IMG/VR virus record: IMGVR_UViG_2778261505_000002
DNA from: a virus
Taxonomy: Duplodnaviria > Heunggongvirae > Uroviricota > Caudoviricetes
Strand: one strand, 5' to 3'
Length of the DNA: 64,000 bases
In this document: in pieces, positions 14,069 through 17,508 of the stretch
How the letters are laid out: the number at the start of each line of letters is the position of its first letter
How positions within the stretch are numbered: the first letter of the stretch is position 1
Program-made: the position numbers and the translations under genes
The notes under the pieces: model-generated
Database searches by the model: none
What the model was told of the DNA's origin: nothing
Seen by the model: the letters and a program-made list of their open reading frames with translations, nothing else

Positions 14069-16177
14069 ATGTCTAAAAAACGTTCCATCAAAGAGGTTCA
14101 GGACTTCCGTGACAGTGTAAAACGAGTAGTCGCTCTCCTTTCAGGTAAAAACATCCCTGTTGCAGAACGAGGGGACGACGCTTATGTTCGCTATAACGAT
14201 GATGGAGAGCCAATTCTCGTAAACATCCCATCAATCCCGGATAACGCAACACCGGCATTGATGAATGCTGTGCGCGGATTTCTCGATCATGAGGTTGCTC
14301 ACATTTTGTTTACCGATATTCGTGTGTCCAACAAAATGAGAGAAAAAGGACGCGTTCCTTCCTGGTCGCTATGGAATGCCTTAGAAGACGTGTTCATCGA
14401 GCGAAAAATGGGTCAGGTCTTTAACGGAACAAGACGTAATCTGATGGCAACTCAGCGCCTTATAATCGAAAAAGTCTTTAAACCAAAGGCTTCAGAGGCT
14501 ATTGCTTATTGTGGCAAAGATCAGCGCGCGCTTTTTCTAAACTTCTTTCTCTGTCCGGTTGTAAGAGCCTGGGATGGCCAAGCACCGTTCGTAGATTTCA
14601 TGGATGAATATTGGCCTGTCATTGAGAAACCAATTTCATTATTAAAAGAACATGGTATCGATGTGGCCGTGCGTAACATGTCTTGCACCGAGGATTGTGT
14701 AAAGGTGGCTGCGACCATAGCTAAGATCCTCAAAGACACTGAAAGTGAAAGCAAAGGTAAGGAGTCAGCTCCGGGAAAAACTTCCGATCCTTCAGACGCT
14801 GACCAGACGGATGCCTCTGGAGAAAACAGTGAAGACAACGAAGATCATGAGACACCCTCAGTGTTAGATAATCACAAATCTATCAAATCAGAATCACACA
14901 GTAAGCACAAACATGATAATAACGACAGTGATGATTCAGATAATTCTGAATCATCAGAAACAATATTCGATGATACAGAAAATGATAAAGAGGTATCAGA
15001 TTCTGATGCTTCTGATAACGCGGCGTCAGAATCATTAACCGCTGACCACGAAAAAAGAAAAACGACAGAAGACGGCTCTTCAGATATCCCAACTCCGTCA
15101 AAAATGAGTCTGGAAGAGGCTTTAGAGGAGTTGGATAGCATGGAAGATGAAGTCGGAGGCATGACAGAAGATGCGCTATCCGAAACGATTAAAAGCGAGT
15201 TAACAGAAAGCTCGAAAAGCGAATACAGGCCATACAATCGCTCATACGACTTCATCGGCTCGATTGATCAGGCAGAAGCCCATATCAAACGGCTTATTAA
15301 AACATTCTCCGATATTGATTTGGGAGGATATCCAATCAGCCGCTATCGCATCGTTCCTGAAGGCAACCAGCTCTTCGACAAATATATTGAAAAGCATCTT
15401 TCGTCAGGTGTTTCGTCGACGCTGGCAAAAGACCTGGAGCGAGCAATAGCAAGCAGAAACAGAGTTCAGTTTATACCGGGCCAGCGTCGGGGGCGCATTC
15501 ATGGTTCTAGTATCTACAGATTAGCAATGAATGATGCTCGCGTGTTTCGTAAAAAAGAAGAATCTAAAGCCGTTAACGCCTGTGTTCAACAAGTGATTGA
15601 TTTATCAGGTTCAATGAGTGGTATAACGATACAATTGGCTCTTGCAAGTGCATATACCATCGCCGATGCCCTTGATCGAATAAATGTTCCCAACATTATC
15701 ACCGGCTTCACTACATTTGGTAGTCATATGGCGGCAGGAGAACTTAAGGCTGTCAAGTATGAGTTCTCTCGCTTTGAATCTTTAATGCTACCTATCATCA
15801 AAAATTGGAATGAAAAGGTAAATTCTCGCGAAGTTCGCTCACGTATGGGGTGCGTAGGCTACACATTCCCACTTCTTAATAACGTGGATGGTGAAAGCAT
15901 AGCCAGCCTTGCATCGTTATTTTCCGGTCGCTTGGAGGACAGGAAGATCATGCTTGTTCTGAGTGATGGCGCGCCGTGGGCTGTTGGGAGAGGTTTTGAC
16001 GCTCATTTGCGTTCAGTTGCGAAGCAAATTGAAACGCAGACTGATATTGATTTGATGGCAATTGGCATCATGACTGACGCACCGGAGAGATTTTACTCAA
16101 ATCATGCCCTGGTAACGAGCGTTGATAGTCTTGGTTCATCTGTAGTTACTGAACTATCTCGTATCATTTTAAAGTGA
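14069..16177 (+). CDS. CobT-like vWA-domain protein
   Basis: 702 aa; C-terminal MIDAS-like VIDLSGSMSG; central ~150-aa acidic S/D/E-rich low-complexity linker; paired with the downstream AAA+ gene. Confidence 0.65.
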   Translation: MSKKRSIKEVQDFRDSVKRVVALLSGKNIPVAERGDDAYVRYNDDGEPILVNIPSIPDNATPALMNAVRGFLDHEVAHILFTDIRVSNKMREKGRVPSWSLWNALEDVFIERKMGQVFNGTRRNLMATQRLIIEKVFKPKASEAIAYCGKDQRALFLNFFLCPVVRAWDGQAPFVDFMDEYWPVIEKPISLLKEHGIDVAVRNMSCTEDCVKVAATIAKILKDTESESKGKESAPGKTSDPSDADQTDASGENSEDNEDHETPSVLDNHKSIKSESHSKHKHDNNDSDDSDNSESSETIFDDTENDKEVSDSDASDNAASESLTADHEKRKTTEDGSSDIPTPSKMSLEEALEELDSMEDEVGGMTEDALSETIKSELTESSKSEYRPYNRSYDFIGSIDQAEAHIKRLIKTFSDIDLGGYPISRYRIVPEGNQLFDKYIEKHLSSGVSSTLAKDLERAIASRNRVQFIPGQRRGRIHGSSIYRLAMNDARVFRKKEESKAVNACVQQVIDLSGSMSGITIQLALASAYTIADALDRINVPNIITGFTTFGSHMAAGELKAVKYEFSRFESLMLPIIKNWNEKVNSREVRSRMGCVGYTFPLLNNVDGESIASLASLFSGRLEDRKIMLVLSDGAPWAVGRGFDAHLRSVAKQIETQTDIDLMAIGIMTDAPERFYSNHALVTSVDSLGSSVVTELSRIILK

Positions 16178-16272
16178 ACAAAACAGCCTTAATGATAAGT
16201 AACCACTTACGATAGATGATGATATATTTATATAAGAAGTTGAACGCTCATTAGAGAACAAAGGAAAAACGC

Positions 16273-17508
16273 ATGACGACTACTGCACTGCAAAATGAAA
16301 AAAATCCTTCTGATTACCTTGTTTGCAAGTGGTGCGGCAAATCATTTCACTATTTTAAGTCCCATGTAGCCAATGGTAATTGCGAGGGCATTCCTGAGTC
16401 AGTAAAAGATGCCGATCCTGACACCGTACTGAAAATGTACACAACGCAGTTTCCAGATGAACCAACGCTATCGAAAAAGGCACTTGATGCAATTCAAGCT
16501 AAACGTGCCGAGCAAAAAAGCGAAATGGCCAAATCTTCTGGCTTGACCAGTAGCCCTGGCTACACAGGCACAGTTGAGTACAAGACAGATCTGGTCGCAG
16601 CTCACGAACTGCTAAACGTAACGGTGGAAGAACTCGGAACAAAACGTGGGACGCCGCTCATGGTTAGCGTCAACGTCAATACGCCGTATCCAGAGTTCGT
16701 TCCCGAAGTGAAGAAAGGCTACGTATATGGCGACTTCGAACTGATCAAAGATATTTTCATGATGCTTGAACTTGGCATACCTGGCTATTTGTGGGGTCAT
16801 GCAGGAACAGGCAAATCGTCATTGCCTACACAGCTATGTGCTTTGCTCAATCGTCCGTTGATCCGTGCCCAACATACAGCATCAATGGAAGAGGCACATG
16901 TTACGGGGCAAATTCTGGCGCGTGATGGCTCTACGTATTTCGAACCTGGCTTGCTTGCGCTCGCAATGAAGCATGGCTGGGTTTACCTCGCGGATGAATA
17001 CGACTTTGCGTTTCCACAAATTCTTGGCGTGTATCAGCCAGTGCTGGAAGGTGAAGCGTTGGTCATCAAAGAGGCAACTCCAGAATGGCGTCGCATTACT
17101 CCGCATGAACGGTTTGCTTTCATTGGCACTGGCAACACGAACGGATCTGGTGATGAAACCGGCTTGTACCAGGGTACAAACATCCAGAACGCCGCGAACT
17201 TTTCGCGTTTTGGCATCGTTTCGAATGTGAAATACATGAGCAAAGACGCAGAGATCAACATGCTGACAAATGCAGGCATCGTGGATGAATACGCTGAAAA
17301 GATGGTTAAGTTTGCCGGTATCGTTCGCGATGGATACGAAGAACACCTCATTAGTCAGCCAATTGGCCCTCGTGAACTTTTGTTGTCGGCCAAGATTGGA
17401 ATGATGCGAGGCGACTTTGTGACAGGTATTGAGCGTTCTTTCATTAACAAACTCCCTTCAGCTTCTGCACAAGCGGCTCGTGAAGTTGTTCAAAAAATAT
17501 TTGGTTAA
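16273..17508 (+). CDS. CobS/MoxR-like AAA+ ATPase
   Basis: 411 aa; Walker A GHAGTGKSS, Walker B-like VYLADEYD; N-terminal Cys/His cluster. Confidence 0.7.
   Translation: MTTTALQNEKNPSDYLVCKWCGKSFHYFKSHVANGNCEGIPESVKDADPDTVLKMYTTQFPDEPTLSKKALDAIQAKRAEQKSEMAKSSGLTSSPGYTGTVEYKTDLVAAHELLNVTVEELGTKRGTPLMVSVNVNTPYPEFVPEVKKGYVYGDFELIKDIFMMLELGIPGYLWGHAGTGKSSLPTQLCALLNRPLIRAQHTASMEEAHVTGQILARDGSTYFEPGLLALAMKHGWVYLADEYDFAFPQILGVYQPVLEGEALVIKEATPEWRRITPHERFAFIGTGNTNGSGDETGLYQGTNIQNAANFSRFGIVSNVKYMSKDAEINMLTNAGIVDEYAEKMVKFAGIVRDGYEEHLISQPIGPRELLLSAKIGMMRGDFVTGIERSFINKLPSASAQAAREVVQKIFG

Follow-up and report, generated by a model that had tools for sequence, protein, structure and literature searches.

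The closest described relatives of the locus considered here are the AAA+ motor CobS and its vWA adaptor CobT, which in Brucella engage the client CobN as the CobSTN assembly. In the solved structures of that system (PDB 9ujv, 9uka, 21vt; bioRxiv 10.64898/2026.07.21.739949), the ‘shaft’ of CobT (Q373-D414) enters the CobS pore, whilst CobT_N touches both CobS and CobN, with D80 sitting at the CobS interface; a linker of ~90 residues, disordered and unseen by cryo-electron microscopy, joins the two domains that touch motor and client, and the crystal structure of CobT_N was likened by the same authors to M48C peptidases. Viral counterparts have been described twice, as a viral cobST cluster (Liu et al. 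2021, PMC8651126) and as a MoxR-vWA pair (Iyer et al. 2021, PMC7824862); the former pointed out that cyanophage cobT is annotated as a peptidase, and the latter described how, in T4-like jumbo phages, the vWA protein that partners a MoxR ATPase has a metallopeptidase domain fused to it. Here, we consider one such pair in IMG/VR virus record IMGVR_UViG_2778261505_000002, of which a stretch of 64,000 nucleotides was analysed (‘the window’): a gene for a CobT-like adaptor (702 amino acids; 14069-16177, + strand) and one for a CobS-like AAA+ ATPase (411 amino acids; 16273-17508, + strand).

The region containing the pair (13500-17800) is 99.8% identical to Escherichia phage CMS-2020a, 98.6% to phage Cyrano, a plasmid prophage of E. 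coli LF82, and ~75% to Salmonella phage SSU5; it is also found in 244 of 5,426 complete E. coli genomes, in every case on a plasmid, and we therefore take the window to be an SSU5-like phage-plasmid. We propose that the pair works as a CobST-style motor and adaptor, probably a proteolytic one, on a client other than CobN during lytic growth, and give this reading a probability of roughly 0.6. Its negative half can be put more strongly, in that the pair almost certainly acts, during phage replication, on some protein other than the client of the B12 enzyme. The only open reading frame (ORF) of more than 1000 amino acids in the window is DnaE, such that the CobN required for a CobNST cobaltochelatase (EC 6.6.1.2) is not encoded there, and neither CobN nor any other cobalamin gene is present among the 130 annotated features of the related 111.7-kb plasmid pLAU-OXA1. 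The corrin substrate of CobNST is hydrogenobyrinic acid a,c-diamide; to our knowledge, E. coli has no CobN and carries out no de novo synthesis of the corrin ring, and Salmonella, Klebsiella and V. cholerae also lack CobN, with Salmonella and Klebsiella following the CbiK route. As neither the element nor E. coli is known to have CobN, the client is almost certainly not CobN and the pair would not make B12 here.

In itself the pair belongs to a known family, of which it is a conserved and unremarkable member, with thousands of near-identical database entries labelled ‘cobaltochelatase CobT-related’ or ‘porphyrin biosynthesis’; our additions are modest, namely a contrast at the peptidase site, the assignment of a probable zinc finger, and a stated argument against any B12 function in this host. 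An earlier note on this DNA, made from the letters alone, had read the two frames as a CobT-like vWA protein with a MIDAS-like DLSGSMSG motif and a CobS/MoxR-like ATPase with an N-terminal Cys/His cluster, placed between a recombinase locus and the DNA polymerase, and of a kind known from phages but functionally uncharacterised there. All of this stands: both frames are present on the + strand as described, the pair lies 3' of integrase and repressor genes and 5' of dnaE, the literature agrees on the lack of characterisation, and hidden Markov model searches return CobT/CobS-type profiles, so that neither protein falls into an unrelated family. The HExxH motif in the N-terminal domain of the adaptor and the Ros/MucR likeness of the Cys/His cluster in the ATPase go beyond that note.

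For the adaptor, Pfam CobT (PF06213) is matched over amino acids 9-294 (4.3e-27, 95.8 bits; gathering threshold 26.1) and CobT_C (PF11775) over amino acids 492-701 (7.1e-82, 274.8 bits; gathering threshold 21); the protein corresponds to phrog_1576 (1e-299; function unknown). Its own sequence matches CobT among solved structures, and a profile of its homologues finds CobT in the PDB (9uka_G) at 3.9e-63. Its AlphaFold2 model, built on an alignment of 147 sequences, has a predicted local distance difference test score (pLDDT) of 85 and a predicted template-modelling score of 0.80. The ATPase matches AAA_5 (2.1e-15, 57.4 bits; cut-off 22) and phrog_249 (‘porphyrin biosynthesis’, 1e-106), and its best match among solved structures is CobS (9ujv, 1.1e-25), followed by midasin, CbbQ and NorQ.

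The N-terminal domain of the adaptor (amino acids 1-222; 14069-14734, + strand) is homologous to CobT_N. Taken alone it matches the N-terminal part of Pfam CobT (8e-21, 75.2 bits), as do the corresponding regions of 30 out of 30 diverse homologues, and hhalign aligns it with cellular CobT at E 4.7e-5. In the AlphaFold2 model its helix is followed by a sheet of three strands and a bundle of helices, and the predicted order of secondary-structure elements agrees with the description of the CobT_N crystal structure in the preprint. Within this domain, alignment of homologues picks out HEVAH (H74, E75, H78; 14288-14302, + strand), an HExxH zinc-metallopeptidase motif, and downstream of it EDVFIE (E106, D107, E111; 14384-14401, + strand), which may supply the third zinc ligand or a catalytic helper. 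Across 147 phage-type homologues, clustered at ≤50% identity and used for the conservation counts of adaptor residues and linker given here, H74, E75 and H78 are kept together in 144; E106 and E111 are each found in 146, and every one of E106, D107 and E111 in 145 or 146. The adaptor thus carries the HExxH with downstream Glu by which gluzincin-type zinc metallopeptidases are recognised in sequence. Cellular CobT instead reads S-M-A-L-R at the positions aligned with HExxH, a mapping returned by both MAFFT and hhalign, whilst EDVFIE aligns with EQARVE of Brucella CobT; none of the 118 cellular CobTs retrieved, a narrow sample made up of close relatives of the Brucella protein, has the motif. 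HExxH recurs in the ‘peptidase’ of cyanophage Syn33 (HEVGH), in ICP2-type CobT (HECYH) and in a Rhizobium phage.

Judged by these alignments, the domain contains a putative zinc peptidase site with the appearance of an active one, a site kept intact in the phage clade where that of the enzyme is degenerate. Since the adaptor, unlike cobaltochelatase CobT, has an intact HExxH...E zinc site, we infer that its client is probably cleaved or processed, as well as remodelled. Next to the motif, D73 is invariant and aligns with D80 of Brucella CobT, whilst R76 is not conserved in the phage-type consensus. A phmmer search of the PDB with the domain gave chance matches only (HLA, SOD). A weak match of the N-terminal profile to the anti-CRISPR protein AcrIIA26 (PDB 9zq6_B; E 0.0043 over 46 columns, built around an NxxEDxFIE motif at amino acids 94-139) is probably also due to chance and was set aside.

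Towards the C-terminus, amino acids ~440-503 (15386-15577, + strand) align, in a profile alignment with residues 332-433 of 9uka_G, with the CobT shaft and the helices that precede the vWA domain, and would thus correspond to the segment that CobS grips. The vWA domain itself follows (15578-16174, + strand). The DLSGSMSG stretch (amino acids 511-518) is the first part of a complete MIDAS, composed of D511, S513 and S515 (15599-15613), N605 (within 15878-15898, + strand) and D633 (within 15959-15976, + strand), all five being invariant among the homologues and aligning with D422, S424, S426, N518 and D546 of Brucella CobT. In structure searches, NorD is among the nearest matches to this domain. 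A vWA adaptor with a complete MIDAS is therefore encoded next to the ATPase gene, as is expected of an AAA+/vWA pair.

The ATPase has an AAA_5 domain in which Walker A (GHAGTGKSS, amino acids 175-183; 16795-16821, + strand), Walker B (VYLADEYD, amino acids 237-244; 16981-17004, + strand) and the sensor and arginine residues are intact. By analogy with other AAA+ proteins, TGNTNG, NFSRFG and GPRELL (17128-17382, + strand), located by alignment, are the proposed sensor 1, arginine finger and sensor 2; the N, R and R of these motifs are invariant in a 13-sequence alignment. Ahead of this core lies an extension of 140 amino acids (16273-16692, + strand) that is without counterpart in cellular, cyanophage and ICP2-type CobS, and which contains the Cys/His cluster CKWCGKSFHYFKSHVANGNC (C18, C21, H26, H31, C37; 16324-16383, + strand). 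The best match to a profile of the extension, built from ten homologues, is the zinc-finger domain of Ros87 (PDB 2jsp; E 1.2e-4), all further matches lying at ≥0.27; against an alignment of 24 MucR/Ros proteins, hhalign gives a probability of 93.5% and E 2.3e-7, over 24 columns only, the aligned segment being SDYLVCKWCGKSFHYFKSHVANGN. The pattern C-x2-[C/D]-x9-H is present in 53 of 55 distinct ATPase homologues. The Pfam MucR model (PF05443) does not match the extension.

The likeness to the Ros/MucR finger lies in the core, C-x2-C-G-x-x-F-x-x-[LF]-K-x-H, and in the second ligand position, where the Rhizobium phage ATPase has Asp, a Cys-to-Asp exchange that published work describes as the usual natural variant of the Ros/MucR family. 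The differences are that only ~24-38 residues can be aligned, that the last ligand in the ATPase is probably Cys37 and not the final His of the family pattern Cys-x2-[Cys/Asp]-x9-His-x3-5-[His], and that the finger is here fused to an AAA+ ATPase of an enterobacterial phage, whereas the family is known from alphaproteobacterial DNA-binding regulators. Taking these together, the cluster is a probable Ros/MucR-like zinc knuckle, as far as sequence comparison can say. The ATPase of Pseudomonas phage ZY21 (locus 4847-8248) has a very Ros-like zinc finger, CEICGEEVHSIANHLKTAH, and the adaptor encoded with it reads SEISK at the HExxH position; this natural variant, with HExxH lost and zinc finger kept, could help to separate the roles of the two features.

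A CobS-like ORF was present in 82 of 83 fetched loci, and in SSU5-like loci it lies directly 3' of the CobT-like gene; a scan of viral contigs yielded SSU5-like relatives only, and added little beyond this pairing. Beyond the SSU5-like phages, Pseudomonas phage ZY21 and Rhizobium phage RHph_N1_10 share the order primase, ligase, CobT, CobS, small gene(s) and DnaE; in ICP2-type vibriophages the pair sits 5' of helicase and PolA genes, and in cyanophage Syn33 glutaredoxin comes first, then ‘peptidase’, two small genes and cobS, with sliding clamp and clamp loader after them. The family as a whole extends across T4-like cyanophages, ICP2-type vibriophages, phages of Rhizobium, Pseudomonas and Gordonia, and tailed viruses of haloarchaea. 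A position in the replication module is thus common to phages of DnaE, PolA and T4 type; as the pair lies near differing polymerases, it is linked with the early/replication module in general and not with one polymerase family, which argues for a host client, or a general one, over a specific phage polymerase.

In the window, the repressor gene is divergent to the operon that contains the adaptor and ATPase genes, and because the pair would be transcribed with lytic replication genes, away from the repressor, we infer a role in lytic development. Consistent with this, the Cyrano genes that a published list gives as transcribed in the LF82 lysogen include the repressor, and CYRAN_47 and CYRAN_48, the pair, are absent from that list, as would suit expression in lytic growth rather than in lysogeny.

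What the analysis shows is membership of the family, conservation of the motifs, the order of the genes and the lack of CobN in the element; the way in which the machine assembles, its proteolysis, its timing and its client are proposals. Synthesising these observations, we suggest the following mechanism. The ATPase would assemble into a hexamer, an AAA+ motor in the helix-2-insert/MoxR-related class, and work with a three-part adaptor, the pore gripping the adaptor segment that precedes the vWA domain (the ‘shaft’), by homology to Brucella CobSTN, and the N-terminal domain of the adaptor docking on the small subdomain of the ATPase. With the acidic linker serving as a flexible tether, a client might then be clamped between the MIDAS face and the adaptor N-terminal domain, such that ATP-driven movement would remodel it and probably also allow it to be cleaved. 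The Ros/MucR-like finger may direct this machine to DNA, or else to some partner protein, and the client is most likely a protein, of host or phage, that is connected with DNA replication.

Several points weigh against this proposal. HExxH is lost in Pseudomonas phage ZY21 (SEISK; Nickievirus) and in three of the 147 representatives, and catalysis is therefore not indispensable to the family. Two structure searches with the adaptor listed vWA matches only, the vWA domain dominating the result, and Pfam peptidase models gave no match to the N-terminal domain. Phages of Gordonia and Roseobacter have the two genes in the opposite order, next to genes that tell us little. The lytic timing in our own element is drawn from gene order and from absence from a published list. 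That E. coli lacks CobN is taken as background, and our searches of the literature brought up no experiments on a phage CobS/CobT.

Amongst the alternatives, we regard as unlikely, though deserving of consideration, a role in virion assembly, in which a MoxR-vWA pair would act as chaperone and protease to assemble or process structural proteins. Such a role was proposed by Iyer et al. (2021, PMC7824862) for the same architecture in T4-like jumbo phages and has been shown for MoxR-vWA proteins in the tails of the Acidianus two-tailed virus, whose vWA protein ORF892 is a distant structural match. However, in SSU5-like, Nickievirus, Rhizobium, ICP2-type and cyanophage genomes the genes lie in the early/replication module, far from those for head and tail, and a zinc finger on the ATPase would have no obvious role.

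A second alternative, which we hold to be distinctly improbable, is that the pair acts as a chaperone that supplies a phage enzyme, the di-iron NrdB for instance, with its metal cofactor, or reactivates it, with HExxH binding metal rather than cutting. The machine would then resemble NorQ/NorD, CbbQ/CbbO and CobST; the vWA domain has NorD among its closest structural relatives, CbbQ and NorQ are among the matches of the ATPase, and the element encodes NrdAB and glutaredoxin, a glutaredoxin gene also preceding the cyanophage homologue. Set against this, the HExxH...E pattern is typical of a peptidase, and no phage enzyme common to all pair-carrying lineages was identified; a phage ribonucleotide reductase is, moreover, little supported as the client, since in ICP2-type phages, whose annotation is sparse, the pair occurs without any annotated reductase.

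A bolder version of the proteolytic motor-adaptor reading, and a long shot, is a DNA-targeted ATP-driven machine in which the finger would bring the ring to DNA, the MIDAS adaptor would seize a DNA-bound host protein (nucleoid-associated or of the replisome), and HExxH would cut it, leaving the template cleared or reprogrammed for the DnaE replisome of the phage. In that case, the viral ‘cobS/cobT’ genes that are so widespread would encode proteases for host takeover, and would not be genes for vitamin B12.

We find it very hard to credit, for this element, the auxiliary-metabolic-gene explanation, that viral CobS and CobT use host CobN, raise cobalamin synthesis and so aid replication; it was proposed by Liu et al. 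(2021, PMC8651126), has been repeated in genome papers, and draws on the homology of both proteins to cobaltochelatase subunits. Measured against the NCBIfam equivalog models both fall far short, with the adaptor scoring 66.7 bits against a cut-off of 759.05 for CobT (TIGR01651; E 1.7e-18, amino acids 297-697 only) and the ATPase 86.6 bits against 558.55 for CobS (TIGR01650; E 1.7e-24). In the argument of Liu et al. (2021, PMC8651126), B12 serves a class II reductase; the ribonucleotide reductase encoded in the window is of class Ia, its NrdA (1300 bits) and NrdB (609 bits) each exceeding the respective cut-off, and is accompanied by ThyA, dihydrofolate reductase and GrxA. As a class Ia enzyme needs no B12, that argument does not apply here. 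The absence of cob genes from the annotated element and, as far as is known, of CobN from its hosts, the conserved HExxH, which is missing from real CobT and indicates a different chemistry, and the absence of the pair from the list of genes expressed in the lysogen all point the same way.

Names may themselves mislead: in the Cyrano record (OV696614, 9570-13009) the pair is annotated as ‘dimethylbenzimidazole phosphoribosyltransferase’ and ‘cobalamin synthetase’, which is wrong, since CobT and CobS of the Salmonella nomenclature are unrelated enzymes that share these names. The same name-based error is found in the description of cobT in a Roseobacter phage paper.

The last alternative concerns the segment between the adaptor's two ends, a Ser/Asp-rich linker of 163 residues (amino acids ~223-385; 14735-15223, + strand) that is delimited by composition and pLDDT (<50 for amino acids 245-332 in the AlphaFold2 model) and consists of 31% D/E and 28% S/T, with a net charge of -37. 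The earlier note had described it as a repetitive acidic stretch of 150 residues; it is acidic, somewhat longer, and repetitive only in composition, since Tandem Repeats Finder detected no tandem repeats in its DNA, and it is better called low-complexity. The inter-domain segment is net-negative in 99% of the homologues (median length 189 amino acids, median net charge -52), and the linker of Brucella CobT is 40% D/E. Amongst SSU5-like relatives it is 29-49% identical and collects most of the indels, as against 75-83% identity in the folded domains that flank it. Acidic linkers of this kind are also found in ChlD/BchD and midasin. Since an acidic linker is shared by homologues and by genuine Brucella CobT, and is disordered in the CobST structures, a flexible tether explains it, and that it instead mimics nucleic acid as a decoy for DNA-binding host or defence proteins, making the adaptor an anti-defence or takeover factor, is highly improbable and not needed: its charge, its disorder and its place in a DNA-metabolism module suit the idea, which the earlier note had raised, but these are traits of the family, sequence and length drift freely, the linker joins domains that bind motor and client, and we find no specific support. 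In PADLOC-DB 2.0 the adaptor has no meaningful defence-system match and the ATPase none at all; a marginal match of the adaptor to DrmE (15.9 bits), which starts in the low-complexity acidic linker, was rejected.

Turning to the surroundings of the pair, a tyrosine integrase gene (12022-13125) lies upstream, followed by the gene for a helix-turn-helix (HTH) repressor (13120-13536, - strand), which matches HTH_19 and HTH_37 weakly and corresponds to the putative repressor CYRAN_45 of Cyrano. A 14-nucleotide inverted repeat (13540-13553 and 13597-13610) flanks a promoter-like site for the repressor (13580-13553) and, lying between the repressor and the operon of the pair, may be an operator; scans for promoters and terminators gave no signal above shuffled controls. 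The operon begins with an ORF of 70 amino acids (13758-13970, + strand; phrog_2627, function unknown), and AAAGGA-type ribosome-binding sites precede both the adaptor and the ATPase genes. Between the ATPase gene and that for the DnaE-type DNA polymerase III alpha subunit (17689-21207, + strand; Pfam DNA_pol3_alpha, 1.7e-73) there is an ORF of 67 amino acids (17511-17714, + strand; phrog_6337, 3e-45, function unknown), which matches no Pfam family, begins with GTG without a clear ribosome-binding site, overlaps the start of dnaE by 26 nucleotides, and contains C5, C19, C22, C28 and H29.

Further out, the genes upstream of the integrase encode, in order, ParA, a DnaB-like helicase, primase, ATP-dependent ligase, four tRNAs and GrxA glutaredoxin. 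The tRNA genes (10447-10997, + strand) are those for Asn, Tyr, Thr and Ser; the annotated relatives Cyrano and pLAU-OXA1 have only three, without tRNA-Tyr. Downstream of dnaE are genes for UvsY-like and gp32-like proteins, a 5'-3' exonuclease and RecA, and farther on those for a Rep3-type plasmid initiator, class Ia NrdA and NrdB, thymidylate synthase (ThyA) and a DfrA51 dihydrofolate reductase. The last of these (158 amino acids; 44582-45058, + strand) reaches 338 bits with the NCBIfam model DfrA51 (cut-off 322), and the phage's own dihydrofolate reductase is on that account placed with the trimethoprim-resistance genes. ApbC, an iron-sulfur cluster carrier of host type encoded at full length (61685-62785, - strand; 759 bits, cut-off 348), looks like chromosomal cargo in the phage-plasmid; in pLAU-OXA1, apbC adjoins metG (methionyl-tRNA synthetase). 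An SbcC/Rad50-like ATPase of 638 amino acids (35082-36998, + strand) adjoins a metallophosphoesterase (33767-34852, + strand) that may be SbcD-like, and the element would thus have an SbcCD-type nuclease of its own, besides its RecA, UvsY and gp32 homologues.

The cobS and cobT genes are amongst the viral auxiliary metabolic genes most often reported from marine, gut and soil viromes, and are usually read as a boost to B12. Hosts that lack CobN, nucleotide enzymes that are independent of B12 and a retained peptidase motif argue that this label is wrong for the present lineage, and probably for a good many more. Since the pair is carried by an inducible phage-plasmid of E. coli, such as Cyrano in LF82, there is a route to a first genetic and biochemical test of viral CobS/CobT, and the recent CobSTN structures provide a framework for the design of mutants.

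Set beside Brucella CobSTN, then, the phage pair has the same two-gene arrangement of motor and adaptor, an adaptor with the same layout of CobT_N, acidic disordered linker, a region aligned with the shaft and vWA domain, identical MIDAS residues, and an AAA+ core with all the nucleotide-binding motifs of CobS. It differs in having neither a CobN partner nor a corrin pathway available to it, in keeping HExxH where the enzyme has S-M-A-L-R, in a linker of 163 residues as against ~90, and in the 140-residue extension of its ATPase, with the probable zinc finger. With the viral cobST, or MoxR and metallopeptidase-vWA, pairs (PHROGs 1576 and 249) it shares a family; the branch made up of SSU5, Nickievirus and Rhizobium phages departs from the others in adding the N-terminal extension, with the probable zinc finger, to the ATPase and in placing the pair directly 5' of a DnaE-type polymerase. 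NorQ/NorD, CbbQ/CbbO, RavA/ViaA and midasin (Rea1/MDN1), which give the best structural matches to the vWA domain of the adaptor, also combine an AAA_5-type motor with a client-gripping vWA/MIDAS domain, and midasin has a long D/E-rich linker before its MIDAS domain; but NorD, CbbO, ViaA and midasin have no peptidase domain and serve known clients (nitric oxide reductase, Rubisco, respiratory complexes and pre-60S factors, respectively), and NorQ, CbbQ and midasin are less similar in sequence to the phage ATPase than is CobS.

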